A stretch of DNA of 59,493 nucleotides from a virus. The first letter of the stretch is position 1, and each line of letters begins with the position of its first letter. Made by a program: the position numbers and the translations under genes. The notes under the pieces were generated by a model that worked only from the letters and a program-made list of their open reading frames with translations, was not told the DNA's origin and did no database searches. This document shows positions 7,839-52,530 of this stretch, one piece after another. The stretch is taken from positions 1 through 59,493 of IMG/VR virus record IMGVR_UViG_3300019458_000009; one strand, given 5' to 3'.

Positions 7839-7847
7839 GAGGTAGAA

Positions 7848-28629: not shown

Positions 28630-28888
28630 GTTGTTCGCCCTCCACGAAGTCCAAGCGGCTGGACGGATAGCGCCCGCGCGCGACGCGCATGCGCTGGTCG
28701 ACCTCGGGGCACCCGCGGTGCAGGCAGTCGGCGCACGTGGACGGGAATGACGGAAGGATCCGCACCACGTCCTCCACTAGGCCGCAGCACCCGCACCGCT
28801 CCCGACGCCCACACCACTGCGCGAAAAAGCCGGGCGACCGGCCGCGCCGACATCCGCACGGCCGTTTATTGTGCTTTTTCTTCGGCAA
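28610..28888 (-). CDS. Possible Cys-rich mini-protein (about 92 aa). The start is uncertain.
   Basis: The only open frame between the polymerase stop and 28629. It has no ATG or GTG, and TTG 28888 is the candidate start. Motifs CGC, CGCC and C..C are present. Confidence 0.3.
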   Translation of the reverse strand: MPKKKHNKRPCGCRRGRSPGFFAQWCGRRERCGCCGLVEDVVRILPSFPSTCADCLHRGCPEVDQRMRVARGRYPSSRLDFVEGEQRVRDAR

Positions 28889-30872
28889 GGTCCAGGTCCT
28901 CGGCCTCGCTCCACCGAGCGTGGGCAATCTGCGCGTCGACGTAGATGGGTACGCGCATACGAGGCTGCCCCGCATCGTCCAGGAAGGTCTCCAGCACCGG
29001 GCGCAGCGCCCGCGCCGCCTCGAGCGCCGCCTCGCCCGGCACCTCGAACATAAGCTCGTCGTGGATCGTCACCAGGAGGCTTCCATCGAAGCGCTTGGCT
29101 ACCTCGTGCCCTCGAATGGCCTGGTACTTCAACAAGTCCGCCGAACTGCCCTGGCAGATGGCGTTGAGTGCCTGGTACGGCTTCAGTCCGCGGTCTTCCT
29201 TGCCTTGGCCCTTGCCCCAGCCCCACCGCTTGGCCGCGCGGCGCCGGCGGCCCAGGATCGTCTTGACGTAGCCGCGCTGCATAAGCGCCCGGCTCACGCG
29301 GTCCTGGAGGCCGGCGAGCTCCGGCACCTCGCGGTGGTAGGCCTCCAGGACCCGCCGCGCGGCGGCCTCGTCCACCGCCGCGTCGTTGTCCGACATGAAC
29401 CGCACCAGCTTATCCTGGCCCATGCCATACACAATGCCGAAGTTACCAGACTTCATGAGGCTGCGCTTCAAGCTGGTGCCCAGGATTCCGTTCATAAGGT
29501 CAGTCGCCCACTGGTGCATGTCCATCGTAGCGTCGCTTGCGTACGCCTGGATCAGGCGGGGCGAGTTGGTGTAGTGCGCAAAGAACCGGTACTCGATCTG
29601 GCTGGCGTCGAACAGCAGCAGCGCATAGCCCGGCCGCGGCACGAAATACTGACGGGCGCCGGGCGCGCGCCACGTCTCGACTTGGCCCTCGTTCATCTCT
29701 AGGGTAAATTCCTCTTCGTCTGGCACCTGCTGCAGGTTGGGTGAATCGGACGACATGCGGCCCGTGCGCGCGCCGAGCTGGTTGAAGTTCGAGTGGATCG
29801 CGTGATCGATCTCGCATTCTAGGTAAGCCTCGATGAACGAGTTGCGGATGTGGTGCAGCCGCCGCGCCTTGCGGATGTTCCAGAAGACGCGCCGGTGGTC
29901 CGGGTATTCCCGGATATACCGTAGCAGCACCTCGTCGTCAAACCGTGGCAGCCCATACGGGTGTCGGCCCGATGGTTTCGTGCGCCCCAGGATCGGAAGT
30001 CCCAGCTTGTGTTGGACCGCGTCGGCGAGCTCCTCGATGGAGCCCGGGTTGACCGACACGCCGATCAACTTCTCCAGCTCGGCCTCCAGCTCGATGGCCT
30101 CCGCAAGCGTATCGCGACGATCTTTTTTAAGCCGGTCTACATCTACCAGGACGCCACGCAGCTCGCTCTCCACCAGGACGCGCAGCATCTCGCACTCCAT
30201 GGCGTACACCGCCTCAACTTCCTCAGTGGCCAGCTTTGGCGCCTGCCACGCGGCCAGGCGCAGCGCGCGCTCCACATCGGAGCACCCGTACGGCGCCATG
30301 ACGTCGACCGGCACGACGGACCAATCCTGGCGGGCCTTCTTCTGGCCTATCAAGTAGGCATCCTTAGCGGCCTCTTCGTCGGCCGGCATGTTTAGGTACT
30401 TCGCGGTGATGGGCTTCAGTGAGTGCGTCGGCTCCCTTTCGTCGATCAACTGCGAGGCAAGCATCGTGTCCAGTAGCCGGGCGCCCGCGTAGTCACCGGG
30501 CTGCAGCGCGCCGTTCACGATCAAGTGCTTGAGATCAAACTTCAAATTTTGGTTGACTATGAACTTGGCCGATCGTGTGATCTGCGTTAGCCAGTGGTAC
30601 ACCTGCGCGCTGTTTAAATTTTTATCCGCGTCGCTGGGGCTGCGGTGGCGTAGTGGCAGATACCATGCCTCGCCCGGCACCGCGACGGATATTCCTAGCA
30701 GGTCGGCGTGCCAGGGATTCAGCCCGGCGCCGTCGATCTCGCGAGACTTCTGATCTGGCATTGTCTCGATATCGACCGCCACGACCGGTTGCCCGACCAG
30801 GTTCGGCAGCGATTCCCCGGGCGTGACAAGGTTCTTTTTAAACTCGAGCTTGGCCCAGCTTGGGTCGATCAT
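28866..30872 (-). CDS. Family A DNA polymerase with a 3'-5' exonuclease domain (668 aa).
   Basis: ATG 30872 sits in an ATGA overlap. Exo I is VAVDIETMP. Motif A is LLLFDASQIEYRFFAHY, motif B is RSLMKSGNFGIVYGMG, and motif C is VTIHDELMFEV. Confidence 0.9.
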   Translation of the reverse strand: MIDPSWAKLEFKKNLVTPGESLPNLVGQPVVAVDIETMPDQKSREIDGAGLNPWHADLLGISVAVPGEAWYLPLRHRSPSDADKNLNSAQVYHWLTQITRSAKFIVNQNLKFDLKHLIVNGALQPGDYAGARLLDTMLASQLIDEREPTHSLKPITAKYLNMPADEEAAKDAYLIGQKKARQDWSVVPVDVMAPYGCSDVERALRLAAWQAPKLATEEVEAVYAMECEMLRVLVESELRGVLVDVDRLKKDRRDTLAEAIELEAELEKLIGVSVNPGSIEELADAVQHKLGLPILGRTKPSGRHPYGLPRFDDEVLLRYIREYPDHRRVFWNIRKARRLHHIRNSFIEAYLECEIDHAIHSNFNQLGARTGRMSSDSPNLQQVPDEEEFTLEMNEGQVETWRAPGARQYFVPRPGYALLLFDASQIEYRFFAHYTNSPRLIQAYASDATMDMHQWATDLMNGILGTSLKRSLMKSGNFGIVYGMGQDKLVRFMSDNDAAVDEAAARRVLEAYHREVPELAGLQDRVSRALMQRGYVKTILGRRRRAAKRWGWGKGQGKEDRGLKPYQALNAICQGSSADLLKYQAIRGHEVAKRFDGSLLVTIHDELMFEVPGEAALEAARALRPVLETFLDDAGQPRMRVPIYVDAQIAHARWSEAEDLDLAEEKAQ

Positions 30873-31861
30873 AGGGTCTCCATCAAAGCGCCGGCCACCA
30901 GGGCTCGCAGACGCACGCCCCACTCGGGCAGTCGCTGTGACTCAAAGCGGCGCAGGTACTGCGGGTGCGGAAACTTGTGATGCGTGATGTTATGCTTGTG
31001 TAGATATTTCGCCGCCGATTCACCGAGCGCGATTACGATCTTTGGCGAGAGCCAAATTATCGCGCGCGGATCGAGTTCATCGCCGTCGTTGTCGTACGCG
31101 TTCACCAGGTACAACGAGCGCTCGCCCACGCCGGCGAAGTCTAACAAATCGCTGAGAGTTTTACTGCATCCGTTAAAGCCCGCGAACGGGCGCATGCCGG
31201 TTATATCGCCGCCTACCTGCTCTCCAACTAGAAGAATCTTCGGCCACAGGTAGCCCCAGCTCTGGGGCGCAAAGCCGGTGATCGTCATAGACCGATCCAG
31301 GTGCATGCGCCATACATCGAGCGACCACGTGAGCGCTTGTGCGACGGCGTCTTCATTGCCATCGGACGTATCAATCTCTGAAAGGTACGTCACGCCCCGC
31401 CGTCCCAGCGCAAGGTCTTTCAACGCAACATCGTAATATTGATTGATGGCGTTGTAATGTCCCACGGTTTGGCACATATCATCGCGGCCTCGTTCGATCA
31501 TGCGGCGCGCGATTGAATCTACGTTGGCTCGCAGGAGCACTTGCACGCTGCCCGCGCGATTAAGCTCACGCGCTACCAGGCGACGGAGGTGCGGCGTGAA
31601 CTTGGGATTTACGCCGTTACGAAACGCGGCGCCGTACGCCAACTCCGACAGGGCGAATCGATCTGACAGCTGTCCACCTTTAGTCACCGCATCTAGGTAA
31701 CTCTGTCCGTAGTTAAAATTCTCCGGCAAGCGACCCCAGTGCTGTATCTTGATAACGTCGCGCCCGTACCACCGGGGCCACTTTGCGCGGTTGATCTTTG
31801 TCCGCGCTTGATTTAAGAAGGTTGTCTTGCCGACGAAGTCGGCGCCCTCGACGATGAACAC
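30869..31861 (-). CDS. Fusion of a thymidylate/dNMP-kinase-like P-loop domain with a UDG-superfamily (family 4/5-like) domain (330 aa).
   Basis: The N-terminal half has FIVEGADFVGKTTF and SDRFALSELAYGA, the TMK-type P-loop and DRY-like block. The C-terminal half has LLVGEQVGGDITGMRPFAGFNGCSKTLSDLL and HKFPHPQYLRR, which resemble UDG motifs A and B. GTG 31861 after AGGAAA is preferred; GTG 31900 is the alternative. Confidence 0.6.
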   Translation of the reverse strand: MFIVEGADFVGKTTFLNQARTKINRAKWPRWYGRDVIKIQHWGRLPENFNYGQSYLDAVTKGGQLSDRFALSELAYGAAFRNGVNPKFTPHLRRLVARELNRAGSVQVLLRANVDSIARRMIERGRDDMCQTVGHYNAINQYYDVALKDLALGRRGVTYLSEIDTSDGNEDAVAQALTWSLDVWRMHLDRSMTITGFAPQSWGYLWPKILLVGEQVGGDITGMRPFAGFNGCSKTLSDLLDFAGVGERSLYLVNAYDNDGDELDPRAIIWLSPKIVIALGESAAKYLHKHNITHHKFPHPQYLRRFESQRLPEWGVRLRALVAGALMETL

Positions 31862-31871
31862 GATTATTTTC

Positions 31872-32900
31872 CTAATGAAAGCAAAAGTTAAATACGCCAC
31901 CGAGTTTCTGGCGCAACAGCTCTTCTAGCGTACGCCGCGCCGCCTCGGAGGTCTCCACGCCGAGTTGTACTCGCTTCCAAAGCCACGCGGTCTCGGCAAG
32001 TTGTTCAAGCGAATTGAGTTCCGCGCGGCCAATGATGCGGTCTGTCAACCTCGCCTCAGCGGTCTTAGCGTCCAGCGACTTCGTCCACGCCGCGCGTAAC
32101 GGTAATTGCAATTCAGCGTTCGGCCTTAACGGGAATGACTCAGATGTTAAAGATACGTTGTCGCCAAGTTCGCCATAGTAGTATTCCAAGATCCGCTCGG
32201 TCGCGCTCCAATTACGCTCGTACAGGTGCAATGACCCCACTTGGTGTACGTACTCTCCAACGTACGCGCCGAGCTGCTGAGCCATGAGCTCCTGCAGCGC
32301 GGTGAAACAAAAGATGTCATAAAGCGTGCCCAGCCACAGGTCGTTCGATCTCATCGTTGTAATGAGATTTAAGTGGCCGTCGCGCAGCAAAAATTGCAGC
32401 GCCAGCGTGCAGGGATAATCCTTTGTCTTAGCGCCTACGTCCGTCGGCGCGTAGATGGGGATGACCGCCTGGCGCGTGTCGGGATCGTTACGAAGTAGGC
32501 GTTGACACTTTAACCACGGCGACGTTTGTTGACTCTGGCCCAGCTCATCACGGTCCTCAACGCACGGACCAAAGATGCGCGGACCATACGCGCCGTATAA
32601 ATGCGCGCCGTCATCGGAGAACTGCCCATAGCTTGGCGCGTAGTATTTGATGTACTCCAAGTTGTCGGACCCGCACAGGTACCACGCCAGCTCACCGGCC
32701 GCGTACGCCAGCGACCAGCGCCGAAACGGGATCAACGGGATACGGGCGACCGGATCGGTGAGCGTTAACTGCGCCGCCAAAATCTCCTTAGTCCGTTGAC
32801 CGCGAGGCGCCACGTCGGTTCCGTGCCAATACACTCGGCGCAGCGCTTGCCGCCACACGTTAGTTAAACTGTCTCCGCTAACGACGCACTCGTTATCCAC
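31872..32900 (-). CDS. Thymidylate-synthase-fold pyrimidine C5 transferase, probably deoxycytidylate-specific (dCMP hydroxymethylase-like) (342 aa).
   Basis: GGAGG RBS, then GTG 32900. The block YPCTLALQFLLRDGHLNLITTMRSNDLWLGTLYDIFCF aligns without gaps to E. coli ThyA [38 protein letters not shown]. The catalytic Cys is kept and Asn177 is replaced by Asp. NDPDTRQ and SLHLYE blocks are also present. Confidence 0.7.
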   Translation of the reverse strand: MDNECVVSGDSLTNVWRQALRRVYWHGTDVAPRGQRTKEILAAQLTLTDPVARIPLIPFRRWSLAYAAGELAWYLCGSDNLEYIKYYAPSYGQFSDDGAHLYGAYGPRIFGPCVEDRDELGQSQQTSPWLKCQRLLRNDPDTRQAVIPIYAPTDVGAKTKDYPCTLALQFLLRDGHLNLITTMRSNDLWLGTLYDIFCFTALQELMAQQLGAYVGEYVHQVGSLHLYERNWSATERILEYYYGELGDNVSLTSESFPLRPNAELQLPLRAAWTKSLDAKTAEARLTDRIIGRAELNSLEQLAETAWLWKRVQLGVETSEAARRTLEELLRQKLGGVFNFCFH

Positions 32901-34098
32901 GATAAACCTCCGCGCGGGGCTTCTTTGGCCGCCAGCCGGGCACACGGTCGAGCCGCGCGACGTAGTGGGCTGGCCCAACGAGCTCGACCAACTCCTGGTC
33001 GCCCTTATATGAGACGCCGGTCGTCAGCGTCTCGTTACAAAGTTTGCCGAACCACCGCCCGACTTCCACGCAGACGCCCTTGCCGATCTGAGCGGCGCCG
33101 TCATCGCCGATGACTACCCAGTCGTCCGGCAAGCCCATGCACCGCGCCATCTCCCGCACCGAGAGCGGGCGCTGGTGATCGGGGTGGAAGTAATGCCAGG
33201 ACCCACTGTAGATTACCTTGCACGGCCGATCCGGGTGCAGCCGGTGCGGTACGTGCCAGCCTAGGTTGATGGCCTGCAAGCGCTCAGGGAGGTCCGCCCA
33301 AGGCAGGTCGCGCACGTTCTCGCCTGGCGCCAGTTTTAACGCAGCTTCAAAGTACGCCCGCGAAGCGGGCGTCGTCTTCCACCAGTAATGGTGGTTGATA
33401 TAATTCGTCGGCGAATTTTTGACCACGCCTTCCAGATCGTTTAGGGTAGATAGATCGAAGACGGGCAGCGCCGGACAATTCCACAGCGCGCCGTTGTCCT
33501 GGCCGTATAAGACGTCGTGCACTAAGACGTGCGGGCCGCGATGTCGCAGCTCATTCGTGACCGTGGTAAGCGGCGGTTGAAGCCGTTGGTCGACCCACAT
33601 GAAAATCACGCGGGGCCGCCACTGCGAGTTGCCGAACATGTTCGCGTTGTGGTACAACTCGTACAGGGTGTACCCGGCCCCGTGGGTGTGGTGTAGCCAC
33701 TCGATCAGCGGGCGCCCGGTCGTGCCCGCCTGCTGCACCGACTCAAACGCCCATATGCTAGGCTTCAGCCAGGAGGCGAGCTCCGCGAATTGGCGGATGT
33801 CCACCGTCGGCCGGGCCCAGGCGCCGTGCGCGTCTTCAGAACAGCCGTGCCCCAGTGCTGAGAAGCCGGTGCACCGCGGGTTGCCGAATAGCACGTCGAT
33901 GCCGTGAAACTTACTGGCCACGCTGGGCCAGGCCTCGAAGTCGCCGCGGTAGAACGGGATGCCTAAGTTGTGCTCTACGGTCTTTTCCCCCAGCGTGAAG
34001 ACCTCGAGCTGGGCTTGCACTTCTAGACTTTCCGCCATGCCGCAAGTAAAGCCGCCCATGAAGCAATGCGCGCCGAGCGCGGTGAAGCGAGCAGTCAT
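32893..34098 (-). CDS. DNA (cytosine-5)-methyltransferase-like protein (401 aa).
   Basis: Motif I is HCFMGGFTCG, motif IV GNPRCTGFS, motif VI FESV, and motif VIII NSQWRPRVIF. Motif IX is RPLSVREMARCMGLPDDW and motif X is IGKGVCVEV. An ATGA overlap joins it to the upstream gene. Confidence 0.7.
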   Translation of the reverse strand: MTARFTALGAHCFMGGFTCGMAESLEVQAQLEVFTLGEKTVEHNLGIPFYRGDFEAWPSVASKFHGIDVLFGNPRCTGFSALGHGCSEDAHGAWARPTVDIRQFAELASWLKPSIWAFESVQQAGTTGRPLIEWLHHTHGAGYTLYELYHNANMFGNSQWRPRVIFMWVDQRLQPPLTTVTNELRHRGPHVLVHDVLYGQDNGALWNCPALPVFDLSTLNDLEGVVKNSPTNYINHHYWWKTTPASRAYFEAALKLAPGENVRDLPWADLPERLQAINLGWHVPHRLHPDRPCKVIYSGSWHYFHPDHQRPLSVREMARCMGLPDDWVVIGDDGAAQIGKGVCVEVGRWFGKLCNETLTTGVSYKGDQELVELVGPAHYVARLDRVPGWRPKKPRAEVYRG

Positions 34099-34577
34099 GA
34101 GACCCTCTTATCCACGATGTCGATGTGCTGCGCCAACAGCAGCGGGGCCAGGTCGGGCGGTTCATAACCTTCGCCCTTGGGATGCAACGGCGACTTGGCC
34201 TCTTGGTTCGCCGTCTTCGTCATGTTGCTGCGTTGGATCTCTGCGAAGATCGGCGCCAGGTCGATGCCGGCCGCGACGGCCGAGCCGAGTACGACGTACA
34301 GCAGGTCGCCGAGCGCGTCGGCGATCTTCACCACGTCCAGCTGGTGCCACGCCTCCATGAGCTCGCCGGACTCAGAAATCACCATGTGGGCGCGCTCGAC
34401 GCCGGTCTTCCACCACTCGTGGAGCCAGGCCTCGTAACCTTGCGGAAGATGGCAGGCCTTCGTACTGCATCCGGACTTCAACAGGTCGACCACGAAGCCG
34501 TGCTTCTCATGAAAGGTTTTAACCGCCGCCTGCGCTTCACGCAGCGATGGATCGTGCGAGTTAGATCCTGGGCTCAT
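34095..34577 (-). CDS. MazG-like all-alpha NTP pyrophosphohydrolase (160 aa).
   Basis: ATG 34577 sits in an ATGA overlap. The blocks ISESGELMEAW ... ADALGDLLYVVLGSAVAAGIDL ... EIQRSNMTK are typical of MazG-type pyrophosphatases. Confidence 0.65.
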   Translation of the reverse strand: MSPGSNSHDPSLREAQAAVKTFHEKHGFVVDLLKSGCSTKACHLPQGYEAWLHEWWKTGVERAHMVISESGELMEAWHQLDVVKIADALGDLLYVVLGSAVAAGIDLAPIFAEIQRSNMTKTANQEAKSPLHPKGEGYEPPDLAPLLLAQHIDIVDKRVS

Positions 34578-35815
34578 AGCAATTCTCTCCAATCAAACAC
34601 ATGACGTCGACCAAGTTCGGGCGCTTGCCAGTTAAAGTCATCTTTCGTCACCACCGCCTCAATGGAGTCCGGCACGCGGCTCGGTTTGAGTAAATGATGG
34701 CCGGCGAGCTGCTCGCGTTGCAGCCACACACGCTCGATATATTCAGCGCCATACCGACAGCGCTGGATTAATTGTCGCGCCGGCTCGGGCGCCTCCACGT
34801 AATACTTCTCGTCGACGAGCTCCAGGTCGTTGCGCAGCCGCGCGTCGACGAACATCAGCCGGCCTGCCTCCGCTACCTCGCACCAGCGAAATGCGATGAG
34901 CTTGGCGGGGTAGAATTTTCGGTGCGTGATGACGATGGACGCCCAGCAGCGTTGGTACGAGCTCAAGATGTCGCGGGGTGGCACGGGTCCCAGGAACGCC
35001 TCCGCGCCGACGGAGTCCAACAGGTGCGCGTGCCGCTCCAGGTCCCACCGACCCCACACGGCGTTGCGGACCGTCGCGCCGTTGGCGTGCTCGCGCTTGT
35101 AGAATTCCGCCAGGAACTGGTCGCGCTCGTAGTCGTTGCCGACGTAGCCGAAGTCGTACTCCACGCGTGAGGTGTCGATCGCGCGGTCCGGCGGCGTCTG
35201 GTACGGCGGCAGCGAGACGTACTGGTGCCCGGCCCACAGGCGCGCCAGGTACGGCGTGAACAGATAAAAGTAGCTCACGAAATCGGCCCGCGTCGCGTCA
35301 CGGATGGCGCCGGTGAGACGGAACATGTCGTCGAGGCAGGGCAGGAGCCCGTTCGCGCCCAGGTCTTGGTCAAACAAGATCACCGGCACGCCGCTGACTA
35401 CCGCGCGCAAGATGACCGCCGTGACCTCCAGCTTGGCCGCGAGCGAGACGCACGGGTTGATCTTGAGGCACTGAACGTCGGCCTCCAGCGGCTTGAACTC
35501 GCTGGACTCCAGCCAGGCCTTCAGCCGACGCTGCGCCCGGTTCTGCGGATCGCAGCCCCGCGTCTCCTTGATGAGGTCCAGGATCACACGGTGCAGCCAG
35601 AGGCCTTCGCCGTTCCAGGCGCTCGCGTACCGCCCCGTGTCCTGATAGTCGAACGTGTCGACGTTTGACCCGTCGGGTGGCCGCGCGATGCCATTCAATA
35701 CGATCTCGTGGCCGCGCCGGCGCAGCTCATCGAGCACCGACAACGCAAGTTTTGGCGCGTTGCGAGTAAACACCGAGTCGTCGGTGTTGCCGTACATCCA
35801 CCAGGCAATCTTCAC
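34574..35815 (-). CDS. T4 beta-glucosyltransferase-like DNA glycosyltransferase (413 aa).
   Basis: GTG 35815 sits in a GTGA overlap. From memory of T4 BGT, four blocks correspond (this protein / T4):
- MKIAWWMYGN / MKIAIINMGN
- VILFDQDL / YYLFTDIRL
- GYVGNDYERDQ / IYGGSFRSGQR
- FLGPVPPRDI / FTGKIPMNMV, and IAFRWCEVAEAGRLMFVD / ITLRVWETMASDAVMLID
No search was run to verify this. Confidence 0.55.
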   Translation of the reverse strand: MKIAWWMYGNTDDSVFTRNAPKLALSVLDELRRRGHEIVLNGIARPPDGSNVDTFDYQDTGRYASAWNGEGLWLHRVILDLIKETRGCDPQNRAQRRLKAWLESSEFKPLEADVQCLKINPCVSLAAKLEVTAVILRAVVSGVPVILFDQDLGANGLLPCLDDMFRLTGAIRDATRADFVSYFYLFTPYLARLWAGHQYVSLPPYQTPPDRAIDTSRVEYDFGYVGNDYERDQFLAEFYKREHANGATVRNAVWGRWDLERHAHLLDSVGAEAFLGPVPPRDILSSYQRCWASIVITHRKFYPAKLIAFRWCEVAEAGRLMFVDARLRNDLELVDEKYYVEAPEPARQLIQRCRYGAEYIERVWLQREQLAGHHLLKPSRVPDSIEAVVTKDDFNWQAPELGRRHVFDWRELL

Positions 35816-36120
35816 GGCTGGCCTTTCTCTAAGTTGGCGATGAACCGATCCAGGTACCAGCGCGCCTTCTTAAGATCCTCTAGCGGATGGCCCCTGTGTG
35901 GGCTGCGCGCCACGTACTTCACCACGTTACCCAGGTGGAACGGCAGCTTCTGATCCTCGATGAAGTCGATAATCTCGATCTTGCCGGCTGCGTAGTGGGA
36001 CGGGTAGTCCACAGGGTTGTTATCCTTCACAGGTTCCGCCGCCGGCTCCCTAAATTGAGCCTTGTATTTCTCGATAGGCTGTTCTCTGAACCGCTGACAC
36101 TCGTGGCAATCGCACGACAT
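35812..36120 (-). CDS. DUF3310-like phage protein (102 aa).
   Basis: GGGGTGAGG RBS, then ATG 36120. YPSHYAAGKIEIIDFIEDQKLPFHLGNVVKYVARSPHRG..LEDLKKARWYL matches the DUF3310 pattern. Confidence 0.6.
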   Translation of the reverse strand: MSCDCHECQRFREQPIEKYKAQFREPAAEPVKDNNPVDYPSHYAAGKIEIIDFIEDQKLPFHLGNVVKYVARSPHRGHPLEDLKKARWYLDRFIANLEKGQP

Positions 36121-36124
36121 GGCC

Positions 36125-36790
36125 TCACCCCTTAAATCGGATCTCCACCCACCCCGCCTCCACCCACTTGGCGAAGACCTTCTGGGCATACGCCTCCGCC
36201 TTCATCACGCTCAGCTGCGCGGCGTGGATCAACTGACGCTTAAACTCGTCGTACTCCACGCCGTCGGGCCCGGCGAGTATAATCATCTGGAAGGCCATCC
36301 AAGCGACGCCCCGCTCGAAGGGATTCTCGATCCGCGCCGACACCCGCGCCTTCTTGAGCGACGTGGAGTCCTTGTCGGGCTCGTCGTCAACCTCGTCGAC
36401 CGCCAGGAGACGCGGGCCCATCATGGCGAAGCGTGAGTCGTTCTTCCGCACCGACTCGGGCACCGCTCGTCCGCTGCGCCGGTAGTGTTCACGCTGGTAC
36501 TGCCGCCCCATCGCCTCGATCATCCAGTCGCGGCGCGCGCGAAACGGCGGCTCTTGCCCCAGGTCTTGGCGAAATCGCGCCTCTAACACCAGGCGTGGCA
36601 TACGCTGTAGCTGACGGTAGTAGTGGTGCACCGGCTCCAAGGTAAAGCCGTCCCACGGTGCAGGTGGCGGGAGCTGAATCTCCTCTTTATCGCGCGCCCG
36701 TTGTGTTTGGCGTTTCTCCTCGAGTGCCTTTTGTTGCGCTCGAACCTCACGCATCAGCTCTCGCTCAATGGCGTCTAGATCAGAATTCAT
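36125..36790 (-). CDS. Hypothetical protein (221 aa).
   Basis: GGAGGG RBS, then ATG 36790. The N-terminus is charged and coiled, and the C-terminus is globular. Confidence 0.55.
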   Translation of the reverse strand: MNSDLDAIERELMREVRAQQKALEEKRQTQRARDKEEIQLPPPAPWDGFTLEPVHHYYRQLQRMPRLVLEARFRQDLGQEPPFRARRDWMIEAMGRQYQREHYRRSGRAVPESVRKNDSRFAMMGPRLLAVDEVDDEPDKDSTSLKKARVSARIENPFERGVAWMAFQMIILAGPDGVEYDEFKRQLIHAAQLSVMKAEAYAQKVFAKWVEAGWVEIRFKG

Positions 36791-39662
36791 CTGGCCCTCC
36801 CGTTCTCGCTTGGTTGCCGGCGAACTCTAGACTTTGAAACCGCTTCAACAGCTCGATGAACGCGCCCGTCTTGTAGTAGGAGTTCTGCTGCCGGCGGAGC
36901 GCATTGCTGCGCACGAGCAGGGACAGCAGATCCCGCGCCTGGTCCTTGCCCACGCCACCCCAGTCGCCGATGTCCGATGGACGGATCTCCCCAGAGCGCA
37001 TTAATCCCTTGATCGTCTCCATCGGGTACGGGAGCGCCATCAAGGCGGCCTTGATGGAGGCGACGTCGGTCACGGCGGCGTCCGATCGCTTAACGTCCGA
37101 ATAGTCCGCGTACCCCATGAATCGAGACGAGTAGATTGTGTTTAGAAATTCCGCGGCCCAGCGCACGTGGCCCTCGCGGACCACCAGCCGCTCCCCGTAC
37201 TCATCGCACGAGAACGTGCGGGCCGCAATGGCGGCCGCCAGGCGGGCGAGCTTCAACCGGTGGTCGGCGGGCTCCACGAGCGGGATCGCCGAGGAGTAGC
37301 GCTGGCCCTGCTCCACCGCCAGGTCGAGGCAGGCTTGCGTGGCGGCGGGCTCCAGGACCACGTCTTCCGGCCGCCGCGACCAGACCCAGAGGATTAGGCG
37401 CCGGCACAGCTCAGATGTAAATCTATGCGGCACGGGCTCGCGCTGCACCTGTTGGGTGATGACCGCCGCGTCTACCTCGTTGGAGGCCACGACCAACGCG
37501 GCGTCAAACCGGCGGACGTCCTCCAGGGAACCCAGCAGCTCCTTGATCGCCTCCGCGCCAAAGCTGTACGTCTCGATCCTGCGGTCGGATCGCGGGTTCG
37601 AGATCCACAGCAGCCGGGTGCGAGCGAACGTGCTACGCCGCTCGATCTTCGTCAGCTCGGCGCGCCCGCTGGACCGCATGTCCGTGAGCGACTGCAGCAC
37701 CTCCGGCGGGCAACCCTTGACCTCCTCCAGGATCACCAAGCGGCGGTCGTTGAGCGGGATGGCTCCCCACGTTACGAACCAGCGGCCTTGCGTCTCCTGC
37801 ACGCCGCCCTTCAACCCAGCGGTTGACGCGCCCTTCATGTCGACGCGCTCGCCGACGCCGTAGTGTTTCAACAAGCGTGACGCCGTCTCGGTCTTGCCTT
37901 GGCCCGAGTCACCGATTACCAGCGCGTCCACCCAGCCCTTGATCGGCTCGCCGTTGAACGTAACGAACAGCGCCGAGTGCCACACCAGGTCCATGAGCGC
38001 GTGTAGCTGGCGCCGCTGGTAAATGCGGGTCACGTTCGCCTCGAGGTCGGAGTAAATCTCGTCCAGTTTACCCTGCACACCCGCTGAAGACCAGTCATCG
38101 TTGGTCGGCTGGAACAGCAGCAGCTCATTGAGTTCCTCGGTCGAGGGCTTAAAACTGGACAGGTTGTCCACGTTGGGTTTGGCCTCGTACGCCAACAAGG
38201 TCGCCACCTGCGTGGCGGGGTCCACGACCGATCGCGCCGTGATCTCGTAGGTCGCGTTCGTCTCGATGCCGTGCCCGACGTGAAAGGCCCGCACAACCGC
38301 ATTCTCCGACGACGCCGGCGTCAGGTTGGTCGTGGAGAATTGCGGTACGAGCCGCACCTCCTCGATGTTGTGCTGGTCCGCGATCAGCAGGTCCGACACG
38401 TCACAGCCGGTCGGGATGCCGATCTTCTCGCGAATCGCGCGATCTTGAGCCGAAGTCGTCACATTGATGAACTCCAGGAGCTCGGCCTCATCGGCCTCAA
38501 ACTCCCACGCCGCGTCGCCCGCTTGGTTCAGGAACACCGGACACACGGCGCACATCTCCATGTTCTTCGGGCAGTTGACCTTTACCGTGCGCGGCGCGAT
38601 GTACGGCGAGGTATTCTTCGCGCTGACGATGACGGGGACCTTTACGCGCTTTTGATAGTACTGCGCCTTCGACGCGCTGCTCAGGTCCACGTCATAGACG
38701 TTAGCGTCGTCGGGCAGCTCAAACGGCTTATCTTTTTGAAACTGCGGCGTCCCTACGATCAGGTTGCGAAAGTCCTGCGGGCCGTAGCCGCCTTGGACGA
38801 AATAGTCCAGCACGTCGCCGTGCGGGTGCCGCTGCAAGTCGAGCGGCAACTGGACGACGCGCACCTCCGCGGCCAGGTCAACTAAGCGGTTCGCCAACCG
38901 CTTAGCGCCGTCCGCCCCGGCCTGGTCTACGTCATAGGCAATCACGACGCGCTTGCCGCGAAACAACGGCGACCACTCGTCACGCCAGTTGCGCGAGCCG
39001 CCGGTCGCGGTGACGGCGTTGAAGCCGCGTTGGCGCAGGCCAATCATCTTGAGCTCACCCTCCGCGACGACAATCTCCTCGCTGCCCTGCAAAGCTTCGT
39101 GCGGCACGAGCCGAATCTGCCCGTGGCGGGCGAGGCTGGTGTACTTCTTTGCCGGTGGGTGAATCTTTAATAGATCGTACGATCGGATGTTGACGAACAA
39201 CCCGGCTTCGTCTTTGATCGGAATGGTCAGGCGGCGAGCCTTCGCGTCCCACCCGAGACGAAACTTGTCCACCGACTCGCCAGAGAGCCCCTTGCTCTTT
39301 TCTAAGAGCTCCAGGAGCTCCGCCGATAGACGCAGCGCGCCGTAATATTCTTCGACGATGCGTGGATTGACCGCATAATCCGGCGTCACGCCGATCGTAC
39401 GCGCGAGCAGGGTCACCACGGCGTGCCGCGGCTGCCCGGTGACCTGGGCCCACAGGTCAATGACGGACCCCTCCTTGCCGCAGCCGAAGCACTTGAAAAG
39501 CTTATTCCGGACGTTGACCGAGCACGACGGCGTGCGGTCGTCGTGGAATGGGCACTGGATCTTCGCCTCGCCGCGCGCGTCGGGCTCCGGGAAGTCCACC
39601 AGGAGCTCCCGCATCGCAGCCAGCCCGTCGAGACGCTTTAAGACGTCCTTAGAATCGTTCAA
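36780..39662 (-). CDS. Primase-helicase: a DnaG-type zinc finger and Toprim domain fused to an MCM-like AAA+ helicase (960 aa).
   Basis: The CHC2 finger is CPFHDDRTPSCSVN..FKCFGCG and the Toprim block is VVAEGELKMIGL...VIAYDVDQAG. A Zn/OB-like block follows (VKVNCPKNMEMCAVCP). Walker A is VIGDSGQGKTE and Walker B is LVILEEV. The MCM-like LQSLTDMRSSGRAELTKIERRSTFARTRLLWISNP is also present. A TTG start at 39662 is inferred. Confidence 0.75.
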   Translation of the reverse strand: MNDSKDVLKRLDGLAAMRELLVDFPEPDARGEAKIQCPFHDDRTPSCSVNVRNKLFKCFGCGKEGSVIDLWAQVTGQPRHAVVTLLARTIGVTPDYAVNPRIVEEYYGALRLSAELLELLEKSKGLSGESVDKFRLGWDAKARRLTIPIKDEAGLFVNIRSYDLLKIHPPAKKYTSLARHGQIRLVPHEALQGSEEIVVAEGELKMIGLRQRGFNAVTATGGSRNWRDEWSPLFRGKRVVIAYDVDQAGADGAKRLANRLVDLAAEVRVVQLPLDLQRHPHGDVLDYFVQGGYGPQDFRNLIVGTPQFQKDKPFELPDDANVYDVDLSSASKAQYYQKRVKVPVIVSAKNTSPYIAPRTVKVNCPKNMEMCAVCPVFLNQAGDAAWEFEADEAELLEFINVTTSAQDRAIREKIGIPTGCDVSDLLIADQHNIEEVRLVPQFSTTNLTPASSENAVVRAFHVGHGIETNATYEITARSVVDPATQVATLLAYEAKPNVDNLSSFKPSTEELNELLLFQPTNDDWSSAGVQGKLDEIYSDLEANVTRIYQRRQLHALMDLVWHSALFVTFNGEPIKGWVDALVIGDSGQGKTETASRLLKHYGVGERVDMKGASTAGLKGGVQETQGRWFVTWGAIPLNDRRLVILEEVKGCPPEVLQSLTDMRSSGRAELTKIERRSTFARTRLLWISNPRSDRRIETYSFGAEAIKELLGSLEDVRRFDAALVVASNEVDAAVITQQVQREPVPHRFTSELCRRLILWVWSRRPEDVVLEPAATQACLDLAVEQGQRYSSAIPLVEPADHRLKLARLAAAIAARTFSCDEYGERLVVREGHVRWAAEFLNTIYSSRFMGYADYSDVKRSDAAVTDVASIKAALMALPYPMETIKGLMRSGEIRPSDIGDWGGVGKDQARDLLSLLVRSNALRRQQNSYYKTGAFIELLKRFQSLEFAGNQARTGGPDEF

Positions 39663-41236: not shown

Positions 41237-42086
41237 CGTCGTCCTCGTCACTTAAAGATAGGACGCGGCCGGACCCGTCGGCGTTACGAAAAAATTGTGG
41301 GCCGTCTAACTTTACCGGCTCGAGCACCGCGAACCCGGCCGGATCCGCGGTTAACGCCATCTGGTAGGCGTAGTCCACCGCGAGGACGGCGGCCTCCACT
41401 TCTTCAACGGTCGCCGCGCGCTGCAGCTCCGCCCGCCGGGCTACGTCGAGCTTGAGCGACTGCAGGAAACTCGCCGCCAGGTCGGCCAGCTCCGCGAGCA
41501 CGCGGTCGACCTTGGGGTTCAGCCGGCCCAGCTCCAGCGCCAGGTACTTGCGGTAGGTGTTCGGCGCCACGCCCAACTTGCTCGCCCACTCCTTGATCGA
41601 CAGGCCCAGTTCCAGACGGTCTAGCTCCAGGCGCTGGCCGAACGGCCCCACCGCGGGAACCGCCGATGGGTGCCGCCCCAGCCGTCTCGCGGCCAGCTTG
41701 AGCTCCCCGGCGCGGGCCGCGTCCCACCGCCGGCGCGCGGGCGACCGCATCGTCTCGCGCAGCGCGTGGGGCCCGCTGCGCTTTAGCGCATCGCGCGCCA
41801 GGTCCACCAGCATCGCCCGCGCGAAGCCGGGTCGGTACACCGCGGCGCGGTATGAGCGGGCCGCCCGCGCGCCCTCGAAGCCCAGCACCTCGGCCCACGC
41901 CGCGTGGGACAGCGGCGACCGCATCTCGATCCGCAGACGTGCGCGGGCCAGCTCCACCACCCACCCGTCGGCGTCCAGCCCGCGGTAGAAGTACCGCAGC
42001 CGCGCGGGCGATTCGCCGGCGGACGCACCGACAAAGCCAGTCACCCAGTCCACAATTTTAGGATCGACGCTCACAGAACAGCTCAA
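41217..42086 (-). CDS. Helix-turn-helix DNA-binding protein (289 aa).
   Basis: An XRE-like HTH segment is present: LELGLSIKEWASKLGVAPNTYRKYL. The tail is acidic (SDEDDDDP). The start is uncertain (TTG 42086 or GTG 42074). Confidence 0.5.
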   Translation of the reverse strand: MSCSVSVDPKIVDWVTGFVGASAGESPARLRYFYRGLDADGWVVELARARLRIEMRSPLSHAAWAEVLGFEGARAARSYRAAVYRPGFARAMLVDLARDALKRSGPHALRETMRSPARRRWDAARAGELKLAARRLGRHPSAVPAVGPFGQRLELDRLELGLSIKEWASKLGVAPNTYRKYLALELGRLNPKVDRVLAELADLAASFLQSLKLDVARRAELQRAATVEEVEAAVLAVDYAYQMALTADPAGFAVLEPVKLDGPQFFRNADGSGRVLSLSDEDDDDPTAG

Positions 42087-42107
42087 TTCAAAATAATTAA
42101 CCGGCCA

Positions 42108-42467
42108 CTACTCCTTGTACCGGAACGCATGGCCGATGGACCGGGCGATGCTGTCCACCAACTCGCTGTACGCTGTCTCATTTCCGACAATCTTCTCAAA
42201 GCCTTTGATGACGAGCCCCTGGATCATCTCACGGATTTTACCGTTCTCCCTGAAATGCTTTTCGACTTCCTCGCGGGCGACGCCCTGCACCGCGCTGTCG
42301 TAGGCCACTTCAAGGGCGCTCCTCCGGTCGTAGTTGTACCCCGACCCCTGCGTAGGCGCTATCAAGTTCTCGAGCGCACCCTTGATCAACGCCTCGCGCT
42401 TCTTCTCGTCGAGACTCTTGAACATGGCCTCGACGACCAGCGCCCGCAGTTCAGCATCCGTGCTCAT
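42108..42467 (-). CDS. Hypothetical protein (119 aa).
   Basis: GAGGAGG RBS and an ATGA overlap. The region is lower in GC. Confidence 0.55.
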   Translation of the reverse strand: MSTDAELRALVVEAMFKSLDEKKREALIKGALENLIAPTQGSGYNYDRRSALEVAYDSAVQGVAREEVEKHFRENGKIREMIQGLVIKGFEKIVGNETAYSELVDSIARSIGHAFRYKE

Positions 42468-42670
42468 TTCGCCTCCTCATTTAGCCAGGACGTAAAATTT
42501 GCGATAGCCTCGCTGATCTTCAGGGCTTTCTGTAGGGGCTCATCCGTGAACGTTCTAAGAGAGTAACTCGCCCATTTGATTCCGGCCTCGTTCAATTCTT
42601 CGCCGGACGGGACAGAAACCGTGTTACGCCCAAGAGCGTTCTTTAGTTCATCCATTCGGTCGTCTCTCAT
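42464..42670 (-). CDS. Hypothetical protein (68 aa).
   Basis: ATG 42670 sits in an ATGA overlap after GGAGGCGAA. Confidence 0.5.
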   Translation of the reverse strand: MRDDRMDELKNALGRNTVSVPSGEELNEAGIKWASYSLRTFTDEPLQKALKISEAIANFTSWLNEEAK

Positions 42671-42876
42671 TTCGCCTCCGGCCACATGGATGAATCGTTA
42701 CGCCACGGCCCGTGGCCTTCCGGTGGAGGTGGACCGTTCAGCGTCAGACATCGGTCCGCCGCGCACCAGCAGCAAAGCTCGTCCTGGTGGTTCATGATTG
42801 CGTGTTGGGTTATCGAGACATGCCAGCAATGCCCCTCGGGGCGGATGCAGGCGGGGGTATCGCTCATTTTCTTCAT
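42667..42876 (-). CDS. Cys/His/Trp-rich mini-protein (69 aa).
   Basis: ATGA coupling on both sides. Motifs HCWH ... CCWCAADRC are present. Confidence 0.5.
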   Translation of the reverse strand: MKKMSDTPACIRPEGHCWHVSITQHAIMNHQDELCCWCAADRCLTLNGPPPPEGHGPWRNDSSMWPEAK

Positions 42877-43040
42877 CGCGACCCCAGAATCTCTCGCACT
42901 TCAACCCGCGCCACGCGCCCACCCTGCAACGCACCGAATAGCCTCGCCCAGCTCCGCCGACCCATGCTGCCAGGAAGGATTCGCCCTCGGACAATCCGAG
43001 CCCACAGCTTGAGCGGCCTTGCTTTCGTCAGCTTCTTCAT
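42873..43040 (-). CDS. Basic mini-protein below the ORF-track size cut-off (55 aa).
   Basis: Hand translation gives MKKLTKARPLKLWARIVRGRILPGSMGRRSWARLFGALQGGRVARVEVREILGSR. GGAGG lies 8 nt before ATG 43040, and the stop overlaps the next ATG. Confidence 0.45.
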   Translation of the reverse strand: MKKLTKARPLKLWARIVRGRILPGSMGRRSWARLFGALQGGRVARVEVREILGSR

Positions 43041-43089
43041 ATGGGAAAACCTCCAAAAACGACCACACCTTTGATGAGTTCGCCTACAG

Positions 43090-52470: not shown

Positions 52471-52501
52471 TTCGGTTCTCCTCTCATCAATCAACACAAA
52501 G

Positions 52502-52530
52502 ATTATACGACGGAATTCGCGATTCTGCAC
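52502..52530 (-). promoter_or_regulatory. Candidate early promoter: a perfect TATAAT -10 box (52507-52502) with a weak -35 (GTGCAG) at 17-bp spacing.
   Basis: Read on the minus strand about 32 nt upstream of the first early start codon. The host and its sigma specificity are unknown. Confidence 0.3.

Follow-up and report, generated by a model that had tools for sequence, protein, structure and literature searches.

A putative T4-like cytosine modification gene set beside the DNA polymerase gene of an uncultivated HK97-type phage

Introduction

Do the five overlapping genes found next to the DNA polymerase gene of an uncultivated, GC-rich tailed phage (a siphophage) encode a pathway that replaces cytosine in phage DNA by a glycosylated 5-hydroxymethyl form, after the fashion of phage T4? 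The question was raised by a sequence-only reading of the IMG/VR record IMGVR_UViG_3300019458_000009, the whole of which (59,493 nucleotides, hereafter the window; overall GC 65.2%) was analyzed here. From sequence comparisons and structure models, it is judged fairly probable that 5-hydroxymethyl-deoxycytidine (5hm-dC) synthesis before replication would replace cytosine and that glycosylation of the DNA would follow after replication.

Gene organization

Capsid, portal and terminase genes identified in the genome agree with the earlier assignment to the HK97 type. The five genes occupy positions 30869-35815 of the minus strand, directly upstream of the polymerase gene, and their open reading frames and coordinates agree with the sequence-only reading; the fold that it proposed for each of them was confirmed by profile searches, structure models and Foldseek. 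The features are listed below in 5' to 3' order of the minus strand.

35812-36189 (start 36189 or 36120), minus strand: DUF3310 protein (PF11753, phrog_236)
34574-35815, minus strand: GT, a GT-B glycosyltransferase distantly related to T4 beta-glucosyltransferase (BGT); predicted DNA 5hmC glycosyltransferase
34095-34577, minus strand: MazG/PRA-PH, an all-alpha NTP pyrophosphohydrolase (PF01503, phrog_671)
32893-34098, minus strand: C5-MTase, a divergent C5-cytosine DNA methyltransferase fold (PF00145)
31872-32900, minus strand: ThyA-like protein, thymidylate-synthase fold; predicted dCMP 5-hydroxymethylase (PF00303)
30869-31861, minus strand: kinase/UDG fusion gene
31277-31861, minus strand: N-terminal kinase domain of the fusion, thymidylate-kinase fold; predicted 5hm-dCMP (dNMP) kinase (phrog_761)
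30869-31276, minus strand: C-terminal UDG domain of the fusion, family-4 uracil-DNA-glycosylase fold
28866-30872, minus strand: PolA, family A DNA polymerase (PF00476, phrog_17)

When read with the best-supported gene starts, start and stop codons overlap at five of the six junctions: GTGA between DUF3310 and GT, ATGA at the GT/MazG, MazG/MTase and kinase-UDG/PolA junctions, and 8 nt with a GGAGG ribosome-binding site between MTase and ThyA. The ThyA/kinase junction, named beforehand as the sole exception to overlaps of 4-8 nt, is indeed a 10-nt gap containing AGGA. Independent gene calls on the NCBI MAG copy of the same genome returned identical lengths of 342, 330 and 668 aa. The coupling on which a single expression unit had been proposed is thus confirmed, but the unit is longer than supposed: upstream, the coupling takes in the DUF3310 gene, then a 221-aa ORF and finally the primase gene, which makes the five genes one section of a larger replication operon on the minus strand. 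The DUF3310 gene (PF11753 at 5e-20, phrog_236 at 3e-26) is located downstream of PolA in relatives and is therefore a member of the replication module, without clear membership in the pathway. The PHROG families of this domain carry the annotation 'nucleotide kinase'.

Predicted synthesis of the modified nucleotide

The ThyA-like protein matches PF00303 at 9e-27. Its best PDB match is the CMP 5-hydroxymethylase MilA (E 8e-46), with an E-value 28 orders of magnitude below that of any thymidylate synthase (8e-18). In the active site (E. coli numbering), L143D, H147T and N177D are changed while C146, S167, D169 and R126 are kept. The Asp143, Thr147, Asp177 signature is common to T4 gp42, including the same Thr at H147. 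The residues were read by criteria drawn from PMC13326640, PMC5175136 and PMC8670742. The Asp at the N177 position, already pointed out as cytosine-specific, indicates a cytosine substrate, and that at L143 indicates a hydroxymethyl, not a methyl, product, the product-type rules (L143, D169) being correlations from a limited set of characterized enzymes. Ser167 and Arg126 point to a deoxyribonucleotide as substrate. With Asp at the N177, L143 and D169 positions, Thr at H147 and a cytosine-nucleotide hydroxymethylase as closest solved relative, the protein is set apart from ordinary dUMP thymidylate synthases. MilA and BcmA, CMP 5-hydroxymethylases of nucleoside-antibiotic biosynthesis (PDB 5b6d, 5jnh), likewise possess Asp at the N177 and L143 positions. 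They are encoded in an antibiotic gene cluster and not in a phage replication operon, and MilA carries the ribose-preference residues Ala176 and Lys133 where the phage protein has Ser and Arg, as in deoxyribonucleotide enzymes (PMC5175136).

The type of product is nevertheless not provable from sequence alone, and 5-hydroxy-dCMP synthases, likewise followed by glycosyltransferases, have recently been recognized in the same fold (PMC13326640). The enzyme could accordingly yield 5-hydroxy-dCMP, as in RB69, or 5-methyl-dCMP, as in phage XP12, and the GT would then either modify this product or not act. This is considered improbable: all tested 5-hydroxy-dCMP synthases have Asn at the D169 position (PMC13326640), where Asp is kept here, methylases are hydrophobic at position 143, where the Asp is that of hydroxymethylases, and the closest solved enzyme is itself a hydroxymethylase.

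A more radical objection is that no bases are replaced and the locus serves ordinary nucleotide housekeeping. It would then comprise a thymidylate synthase and a thymidylate kinase together with a house-cleaning MazG, a methylase of the Dcm type, a UDG for repair and an unrelated GT, all adjacent by chance. Homologous genes were read in this way by automatic annotation and in the description of the cultured Stenotrophomonas phage AXL3 (PMC7504290), and the sole name returned by NCBIfam for the ThyA-like gene is 'thymidylate synthase', far below cut-offs. Such a reading is very hard to sustain against the alteration of all three positions defining dUMP/methyl specificity (N177D, L143D, H147T), the margin by which MilA outscores the thymidylate synthases, and the behavior of AXL3 DNA, which proved refractory to 35 of 37 restriction enzymes, every one of them having G/C in its site (PMC7504290). 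AXL3 (NC_071036) harbors in its nucleotide module gp27-gp31 a homologous pyrophosphatase (E 2e-24), a nearly full-length homologue of the kinase-UDG fusion (E 6.6e-22) and a ThyA with an identical active-site signature. It differs in its 47.5-kb genome, in the addition of dCMP deaminase and ThyX, in a class-I methyltransferase replacing the C5-MTase, and in a modification known from restriction resistance alone. As AXL3 has no BGT-like GT, this resistance supports the replacement step only.

The pyrophosphatase was identified by PF01503 (3.5e-13) and phrog_671 (8e-20), with DR2231 as best PDB match; its acidic metal-binding residues E69, E72, D87 and D91 are conserved across nine homologues. 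It is predicted to be a dCTP (possibly also dUTP) pyrophosphatase, a functional analogue of T4 gp56. The same association is found in the MetaGPA contigs, which combine Asp177 thymidylate synthase, PRA-PH and dCMP deaminase: on contigs with experimentally demonstrated modified cytosine, PF01503 is found alongside Asp177 thymidylate-synthase homologues, and PRA-PH and Asp177 ThyA homologues are enriched there (PMC8670742).

The kinase domain matches phrog_761 at 5.8e-13 and its homologues match PF02223. Its P-loop EGADFVGKTT and NMP-binding motif DRFxLSELAYG are invariant, its Foldseek matches are the M. tuberculosis and Aquifex TMPK, and a stand-alone version exists in related phages. Since substrate specificity cannot be read off the sequence of either the kinase or the pyrophosphatase, the assigned substrates are predictions. 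The counterparts of the four T4 enzymes had been described as unrelated-looking versions. This holds for the kinase and the pyrophosphatase, which share no detectable similarity with gp1 and gp56, respectively; it does not hold for the ThyA-like protein, a gp42 homologue (27% identical, E 2e-13), nor for the GT, a distant relative of BGT.

The UDG domain scores below the cut-off with PF03167 (2.8e-4) and its homologues score above it. Its family profile retrieves TM0511 (9e-5) and the T. thermophilus UDG (2.8e-4) from the PDB, and family-4 UDG and UdgX are the top Foldseek matches of its model (pLDDT 90, pTM 0.89). The motifs VGE, RPFAG, Asn254 and HPQ are conserved; the four-Cys cluster is absent from the domain. 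Its most likely role, put forward tentatively, is at the replication fork, where it may remove uracil-type bases or dock the kinase on the polymerase. A comparable arrangement is known from the UDG-PolA proteins of the 5hmU-containing phages SPO1, SP-10 and SP-15 (PMC10201439), in which a family-4 UDG fold with its catalytic motifs kept is also tied to a family A polymerase and to the conversion of a pyrimidine to its 5-hydroxymethyl form (here predicted). In those phages, however, the UDG is fused to the polymerase and the modified base is uracil, whereas here it is fused to a kinase encoded immediately upstream of the polymerase and the predicted base is cytosine. PolA itself (PF00476 at 1.9e-61, phrog_17 at 4.9e-106) is predicted to incorporate 5hm-dCTP. 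No description of the kinase-UDG fusion or of the linked MTase clade was found in the publications consulted.

Predicted glycosylation and methylation of the DNA

Sequence searches of Pfam, PHROG, NCBIfam and the PDB, and of 50,697 phage records, gave no match for the GT, of which only 10 homologues were found among 5.8e9 proteins and 190 relatives among 1.84e9 representatives. Its AF2 model (pLDDT 84, pTM 0.83) is of the GT-B type, and the top Foldseek match in the PDB is T4 BGT (1c3j, E 4e-8); the structural matches in BFVD comprise a 'DNA beta-glucosyltransferase' and the GTs of SP-15 and a Rhizobium phage. Alignment of the GT profile with T4 BGT by hhalign (E 2.8e-4) covers the UDP-binding half. 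Residues D151, R231, R310 and E313 align with BGT D100, R195, R269 and E272, the D151/D100 equivalence being taken from a MAFFT alignment at about 13-20% identity, and these positions are conserved in 38-42 of 42 relatives. The protein falls within the GT-B glycosyltransferases, with T4 BGT as best structure match and catalytic and UDP-binding residues aligned and conserved.

GT-B enzymes adjoining ThyA homologues constitute a recognized class of pre-replicative pathways in metaviromes, and the present locus is of the same gene-neighborhood class (bioRxiv 2023.12.21.572611); it differs from those clusters and from the MetaGPA contigs by the rarity of its GT family. The same survey found most phage GT-containing contigs not to adjoin base-modification genes. 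The GT does not match the Pfam BGT family PF09198, and 24 of the 42 relatives match the general CgeB-like family PF13524. Moreover, in close relatives the GT and MazG genes are separated by a radical SAM/SPASM gene, and some relatives have a second tandem GT, which suggests that the end product varies. It could thus be that 5hm-dC is made and incorporated but that the GT acts on a host surface polymer or small molecule, or that the final modification is not a simple hexosyl-5hmC. This is regarded as unlikely, given that the GT gene is embedded in the nucleotide module and overlaps both neighbors by 4 nt, that all homologues with enough flanking sequence are in such modules, and that no other PDB entry matches as well as T4 BGT, with which the key residues align.

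The C5-MTase matches PF00145 at 9e-15, and its family profile retrieves M.HaeIII (3e-16) as well as DNMT1 and M.HhaI from the PDB. The protein retains the catalytic Cys, Glu in motif VI, Arg residues in motif VIII and the elements of motifs I and II that bind the cofactor, and the catalytic motifs are conserved in 23 homologues; FMGGF, GNPRCTGFS, FESVQQ and QxRxRV are characteristic of the clade. Since 5hmC cannot be methylated at C5, the conservation of a C5-MTase fits poorly with a complete replacement of cytosine. The enzyme most likely, although the proposal is a tentative one, methylates the cytosines that escape replacement. Mixed DNA could then be envisaged, in which incomplete 5hmC replacement leaves cytosines to be methylated in the sites of the C5-MTase, giving 5mC together with (glycosyl-)5hmC. 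This possibility, which extends the favored pathway rather than excluding it, is rated below even but above the other alternatives. Each of the related phages examined, even those devoid of GT, has the C5-MTase linked to the ThyA-like gene, and in MW202657 an unrelated HaeIII-like C5-MTase accompanies a ThyA of the same signature. Against this, motif I falls one residue short of the canonical length, PRC replaces PPC in motif IV, both activity and cofactor use are only predicted, and AXL3 has its class-I methyltransferase at that position.

Proposed pathway and comparison with phage T4

The preferred pathway of cytosine replacement followed by glycosylation can be summarized as follows. The pyrophosphatase would convert dCTP to dCMP, thereby lowering the competing pool and feeding the ThyA-fold enzyme, which would use methylene-tetrahydrofolate to form 5-hydroxymethyl-dCMP. 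The thymidylate-kinase-fold domain would then produce 5hm-dCDP, the host nucleoside-diphosphate kinase 5hm-dCTP, and the phage polymerase would incorporate 5hm-dC in place of dC. In the last step, the 5-hydroxymethyl group in DNA would receive a sugar that the BGT-like enzyme takes from a nucleotide sugar of the host; the scanned ORFs of the window included no sugar-nucleotide genes. The T4-style pathway of the sequence-only reading is supported in that all parts are present and both the ThyA-like protein and the GT fell into the expected groups; product, sugar and extent of replacement are those we infer.

The proposed pathway follows the same logic and draws on the same activities as the T4 glucosyl-5-hydroxymethylcytosine pathway (gp42, gp1, gp56, alpha- and beta-glucosyltransferases). 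T4 is, however, a myovirus with a family B polymerase and scattered pathway genes, in contrast to the family A polymerase and single overlapping block of this HK97-type phage. A TMPK-fold kinase and a PRA-PH/DR2231-like pyrophosphatase are encoded here. Two conserved extras are also present, as had been noted: the C5-MTase and the family-4 UDG domain fused to the kinase. The gene set would thus probably represent a T4-like cytosine modification logic built from different proteins plus two extra parts.

Conservation and origin of the gene set

The gene set is syntenic in related metagenomic phages (L001-L007), its order being conserved across at least six related contigs, and the combination recurs in the more distant phages L021 and L022. 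The lower GC previously ascribed to the ThyA (57.3%) and kinase/UDG (57.7%) genes is real, with a GC3 of 0.69 for each against 0.886 (sd 0.05) for long ORFs elsewhere. Acquisition of the pathway as a cassette, which had been deduced from it, is not supported: gene order is conserved, the dip is limited to these two among the pathway genes, and the same genes display no dip in relatives. This pattern fits a recombinational replacement of the two genes rather than an import of the pathway.

Genome and operon organization

The window is a complete phage genome, assembled in circular form. An exact repeat of 123 nt at both termini (window 1-123 and 59371-59493) reflects an overlap in the assembly of a genome that is circular or terminally redundant, and leaves approximately 59,370 bp of unique sequence, in agreement with the 59,361 bp of the NCBI MAG copy of the same genome. 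The genome-wide GC content is 65.2%, and an HK97-type capsid, a prohead protease, a portal and a large terminase are among the encoded proteins. Genes for replication and nucleotide metabolism lie on the minus strand, between approximately 52 kb and 21 kb. This part includes the block 30869-35815, in which a sequence-only reading had recognized five coupled genes and proposed for them a T4-style pathway for the hydroxymethylation and glycosylation of cytosine. The genes are the following.

34574-35815, minus strand, glycosyltransferase (GT)
34095-34577, minus strand, pyrophosphatase
32893-34098, minus strand, C5-methyltransferase
31872-32900, minus strand, ThyA-fold enzyme
30869-31861, minus strand, kinase-UDG fusion
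28866-30872, minus strand, family A DNA polymerase (PolA)

The coordinates and junctions of the five-gene block were confirmed, and identical protein lengths were obtained in the independent gene call of the NCBI MAG copy.

Junctions between consecutive genes (minus strand, best-supported starts)
Junction; arrangement
DUF3310/GT; GTGA overlap
GT/pyrophosphatase; ATGA overlap
pyrophosphatase/methyltransferase; ATGA overlap
methyltransferase/ThyA-like; 8-nt overlap behind GGAGG
ThyA-like/kinase; 10-nt gap behind AGGA
kinase-UDG/PolA; ATGA overlap

The coupling of the five genes had been read as a sign of a single expression unit and is retained, but the unit is not confined to them: since the overlaps run on upstream as far as the primase gene, they belong to an operon of greater length. 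A search of the region at the DNA level against 50,697 phage records returned no match, and the promoter and terminator scan of the 27-43 kb interval remained, as a whole, at chance level. One sigma-70-like site (window 31863-31891, minus strand; TTAACT, 17 nt, AATAAT; 9/12) falls in the sole non-overlapping junction, upstream of the kinase start and within the low-GC stretch described below. The gene coupled to that of the GT (window 35812-36189, minus strand) encodes a DUF3310 protein, a domain found in PHROG families annotated 'nucleotide kinase'. As this gene is located downstream of PolA in the relatives, its place beside the GT is particular to this genome.

The ThyA-fold enzyme

The product of 31872-32900 belongs to the thymidylate-synthase family according to Pfam (PF00303, 9e-27) and its catalytic Cys aligns with C146 of the E. 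coli enzyme. Its best solved relative is the CMP 5-hydroxymethylase MilA (E = 8e-46), the best true thymidylate synthase being found at 8e-18. The protein was aligned with E. coli ThyA, T4 gp42 (dCMP hydroxymethylase), SPO1 gp29, MilA and six phage homologues.

Residues of the ThyA-fold enzyme at selected E. coli ThyA positions
Position; window enzyme; significance
N177; Asp; cytosine substrate
L143; Asp; water access, hydroxymethyl product
H147; Thr; same as T4 gp42
D169; Asp kept; Asn in 5-hydroxy-dCMP synthases
S167 and R126; both kept; deoxyribonucleotide, Ala and Lys in MilA

Replacement of Asn177 by Asp denotes a cytosine rather than a uracil substrate (PMC13326640, PMC8670742) and was observed in the window enzyme and in 7/7 phage homologues checked, namely six metagenomic relatives and gp28 of the cultured Stenotrophomonas phage AXL3 (NC_071036). 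An acidic residue in place of Leu143 provides water access and leads to a hydroxymethyl product (PMC13326640), and Asp at this position is common to the window enzyme, T4 gp42, SPO1 gp29 and MilA. A canonical ThyA was rejected, given the D, D and T found in place of Asn177, Leu143 and His147. Synthases of 5-hydroxy-dCMP of the RB69 gp48 type are marked by an Asn replacing Asp169 (PMC13326640) and were discarded as well, since the required Asn is absent and Asp169 is retained. A ribonucleotide (CMP) hydroxymethylase of the MilA type was rejected too. The ribose preference of MilA is associated with Ala at its position 176 and Lys at 133 (PMC5175136); Ser and Arg occupy these positions in the window enzyme, as in TS and T4 gp42. 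The NCBIfam TS equivalog scores of 60-77 bits lie far below the cut-offs of 108-576, and identity with T4 gp42 amounts to 27%. From its residue signature, the enzyme is predicted to be a dCMP 5-hydroxymethylase.

The glycosyltransferase

No Pfam match was obtained for the GT at E <= 0.1; PHROG, NCBIfam and PDB sequence searches were also empty, and tblastn against the 50,697 phage records gave no match. Homologues amount to 10 among 5.8 billion proteins and 190 among 1.84 billion cluster representatives, and only structure prediction was informative. The model built from the 10 sequences (pLDDT 84, pTM 0.83) displays the two Rossmann domains of the GT-B fold. Its top PDB match in Foldseek is T4 beta-glucosyltransferase (BGT, 1c3j; E = 4e-8, TM 0.50/0.59), with MshA and other GT-B enzymes ranking below, and viral predicted structures agree with this picture. 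Comparison with T4 BGT using hhalign (E = 2.8e-4, probability 41%) covers the C-terminal, nucleotide-sugar-binding half only. Residues D151, R231, R310 and E313 align with D100, R195, R269 and E272 of BGT, in an alignment of about 13-20% identity, with 38 to 42 of the aligned sequences (41 relatives and BGT, 42 in total) retaining each residue. In BGT, Asp100 is the catalytic base, and Arg195, Arg269 and Glu272 bind UDP. Among the 42 aligned sequences, T4 BGT itself is the sole match to PF09198; many of the relatives match the general PF13524 family. The enzyme is accordingly designated BGT-like in fold and, as the alignment suggests, in active-site layout, and is not counted as a member of GT63. 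Belonging to a very rare family, it could find use as a new reagent for DNA labelling if the prediction holds.

In some relatives (L018 965-3387 and L019 408-2119) the GT gene is doubled in tandem, one copy being a close family member and the other distant, an arrangement reminiscent of T-even and RB69-like phages, whose DNA glycosyltransferases are paired or sequential. The contigs carrying more distant relatives of the GT (P0065 and P0069) were too short for informative neighbourhoods.

The pyrophosphatase and the kinase-UDG fusion

The pyrophosphatase is an all-alpha MazG/PRA-PH enzyme with conserved acidic metal ligands, whose family showed no significant similarity to T4 gp56 (dCTPase) using hhalign (probability 1%). 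The same comparison of the kinase family with T4 gp1 (dNMP kinase) was negative as well (probability 0.1%). The protein encoded at 30869-31861 is a two-domain fusion (model pLDDT 90, pTM 0.89). Its N-terminal half has a thymidylate-kinase fold with the P-loop EGADFVGKTT and the nucleotide-binding motif DRFALSELAYG. Homologues of the kinase match PF02223 and Foldseek retrieves 1n5k and 2pbr with this domain, the window kinase's own scores being weak (phrog_761, 5.8e-13; TIGR00041, 17.7 bits for a cut-off of 83). The C-terminal half adopts a family-4 UDG/UdgX fold (Foldseek 1l9g, 1ui1 and 4zbx at E = 6e-6 to 1e-5; TM0511 at 9e-5 in a profile search) and conserves the UDG motifs VGE (motif A), RPFAG with the stacking Phe, the base-reading N254 and HPQ (motif B). 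No set of four conserved Cys that could serve as [4Fe-4S] ligands was found in the UDG half of a 12-sequence alignment.

The kinase-UDG fusion could also be read as the DNA 5hm-base kinase and aGPT-Pplase pair (5-HMUDK + aGPT-Pplase) of thymidine hypermodification. This interpretation was rejected, as the mononucleotide-binding TMPK motifs are intact in the kinase, the ThyA-fold enzyme has the cytosine-specific Asp177 and no aGPT-Pplase Pfam match was obtained. The solved aGPT-Pplase (PUGT) consists of helical subdomains in a fold reported as novel; no UDG-type fold is mentioned in the paper describing it, so that the UDG domain was not retained as an aGPT-Pplase. The 5hmU phages SPO1, SP-10 and SP-15 have a family-4 UDG domain joined to their family A polymerase, and the domain has been suggested to act in editing or processivity (PMC10201439). 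Here, in contrast, the UDG domain is attached to the kinase, whose gene overlaps that of the polymerase. This arrangement suggests a possible fork-associated role of the domain.

The C5-methyltransferase

The methyltransferase matches PF00145 with 55.3 bits (cut-off 22) and its family profile finds M.HaeIII in the PDB at 3e-16. It belongs to a distinct clade characterized by FMGGF, GNPRC(T/S)xFS, (F/W)ESVQQ and QxRxR, and the motifs GNPRCTGFS (motif IV), FESVQQ (motif VI) and QWRPRV (motif VIII) are invariant or nearly so in 23 homologues. PRC instead of PPC in motif IV and ESV instead of ENV in motif VI depart from the canonical enzymes; motif I, FMGGF, is one residue short of the canonical FxGxGG and the motif II Glu is retained. 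The protein thus has a C5-cytosine DNA methyltransferase fold with putative SAM-dependent methyl transfer, and its reaction may be non-canonical.

No gene accompanies the ThyA-like gene more consistently than that of the methyltransferase. Because DNA fully substituted with 5hmC offers no substrate to a C5-methyltransferase, the enzyme does not fit full replacement, and its presence is most simply explained by incomplete replacement, the leftover sites being methylated. The linkage of a C5-methyltransferase to a predicted dCMP hydroxymethylase recurs across several phage lineages, and no discussion of it was found in the literature examined. A methyltransferase and a GT would also be expected in the post-replicative pathway combining C5-MT, TET/5mYOX and GT (Burke et al. 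2021). This possibility was rejected, since the Pfam scan of 39 window ORFs revealed no dioxygenase of the TET/5mYOX (TET/JBP) type; sugar-nucleotide genes and a dCMP deaminase were likewise not found among these ORFs.

A methyltransferase of the same clade (GNPPC, WESVQQ) was also noted in the cultured Micrococcus phage Kurnik (OR756649, 5390-10236), together with two GT-A-like glycosyltransferases and a MazG-like gene. No ThyA-like gene was found among the genes surrounding this cluster, where some of the nearby unnamed proteins were scanned with Pfam. A 442-aa protein encoded upstream, without family match, could be the missing oxidase or hydroxymethylase.

Conservation in related phages

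The order GT - (radical SAM/SPASM) - pyrophosphatase - methyltransferase - ThyA-like - kinase/UDG - (dCMP deaminase) - PolA is conserved in at least six related metagenomic contigs. More distant loci share this backbone. In L013 and L014, the pyrophosphatase and methyltransferase genes accompany those of a ThyA with the same signature and of a stand-alone kinase, the whole set lying beside PolA; the GT and the UDG domain are both missing. The IMG/VR locus L021 carries the GT, kinase-UDG fusion, methyltransferase and ThyA, and L022 the same set with the kinase only in place of the fusion. The gene content of these distant relatives defines a core composed of the pyrophosphatase, ThyA-like enzyme, kinase and methyltransferase, to which the GT is an add-on. 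In the phage record MW202657, whose ThyA has the same signature, a kinase-like ORF lies between hypothetical proteins of 415 aa and 365 aa; these two were tested as relatives of the GT or the kinase/UDG and proved unrelated.

The radical SAM/SPASM gene occupies 8712-9686 in L001, 8971-9957 in L003 and 5815-6822 in L007, between the GT and pyrophosphatase genes. It suggests a further modification step in those close relatives. The window is devoid of it, the two flanking genes overlapping directly.

AXL3 comes closest to providing experimental support for the core; it encodes homologues of the pyrophosphatase, the kinase-UDG fusion and the ThyA with identical signature, and a dCMP deaminase as well. 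In the region 6854-9162 of this phage, the annotated thymidylate synthase (gp28) has the dCMP-hydroxymethylase signature D143, T147 and D177, and the annotated thymidylate kinase (gp29) is a fusion of a kinase with a family-4 UDG. These genes were read by the AXL3 authors as devoted to thymidylate synthesis, and the phage DNA was reported to resist 35/37 restriction enzymes, each of which has G/C in its site (PMC7504290). Taken together, the gp28 signature, the gp29 fusion and this resistance suggest that AXL3 DNA contains a 5-substituted cytosine, and the homologous core offers an immediate route to the identity of the G/C modification of that phage. Asp177 ThyA homologues, PRA-PH and dCMP deaminase have been tied to modified-cytosine contigs by MetaGPA (PMC8670742), and GT-B enzymes beside ThyA homologues have already been described as pre-replicative hypermodification pathways in a metavirome survey (bioRxiv 2023.12.21.572611).

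Base composition

Acquisition of the genes as a cassette had been proposed from the lower GC of the ThyA and kinase/UDG genes. The dip is real, with a GC of 57% and a GC3 of 0.69 for these two genes, compared to a GC3 of 0.886 (sd 0.05) for long ORFs elsewhere. The import of a cassette is not supported: the GT, pyrophosphatase and methyltransferase genes have a GC no lower than their neighbours of the replication module, the same two genes show no dip in the relatives, and synteny is conserved. This combination points to a recombinational replacement of the ThyA and kinase/UDG genes rather than to the import of a pathway. Further low-GC stretches (54-58%), containing short ORFs only, one of which encodes a 151-aa protein (phrog_25637), were observed in window 42000-44000 and 52000-53000 and may be early/regulatory regions or other mosaic segments.

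Proposed pathway and its implications

As far as computation goes, the pathway interpretation is supported by the ThyA signature, the BGT-like GT-B fold and the presence of the other folds. In the scheme that we infer in all its steps, dCTP would be hydrolysed to dCMP, which would then be hydroxymethylated; the product would be phosphorylated by the kinase domain and subsequently by a host NDP kinase, 5hm-dCTP would be incorporated by PolA, and the GT would finally glycosylate 5hmC in DNA with a host nucleotide sugar as donor. We consider it very probable that 5hmC is made and incorporated, and grant the whole chain, glycosylation included, a somewhat better than even chance.

If the chain operates in full, about 65% of the base pairs of the genome would carry a bulky cytosine adduct, which would stop most restriction enzymes as well as many CRISPR nucleases. 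A T4-style pathway would have been rebuilt from other protein families, and the family A polymerase of this siphovirus-type phage would have to copy glycosylated templates. The known glycosyl-5hmC phages use family B polymerases (PMC10201439).

A broader proposal, which we regard as rather unlikely, is that both extra conserved proteins work in a cytosine-replacement machine unlike that of T4, with at least two cytosine modifications in the genome. The UDG domain would then dock the hm-dCMP kinase on the family A polymerase and tether precursor synthesis to the fork, in a manner resembling the UDG domain built into the SPO1-type UDG-PolA enzymes, and would excise uracil-type or unmodified pyrimidines in a second editing step. 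The GNPRC/ESVQQ methyltransferase clade may in this case mark the cytosines that escape replacement or, alternatively, apply its covalent C6 chemistry to 5hmC and exchange the hydroxyl for another group.

Other features of the genome

A small P-loop kinase of the AAA_33/polynucleotide-kinase type (window 21483-21956, minus strand; PF13671, 3.6e-13; TIGR04075 Pnkp, 8e-8) is encoded at the far end of the minus-strand block and has no match in phage records. On the same strand, a 960-aa replication protein (window 36780-39662) combines a DnaG-type zinc finger, a Toprim and an MCM-like P-loop domain; among cultured phages, its closest relatives are those of Microbacterium (Krampusvirus) phages. 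The ORF 44530-45138, also on the minus strand, encodes a 202-aa protein without family match and contains a degenerate tandem repeat (window 44579-44806) made of 9-nt units in about 17 registers, of the GGCGGCGxG type on the coding strand, which specifies a glycine-rich stretch. On the plus strand, the portal protein (window 56891-59128) is fused to a Mu F-like head-morphogenesis domain.
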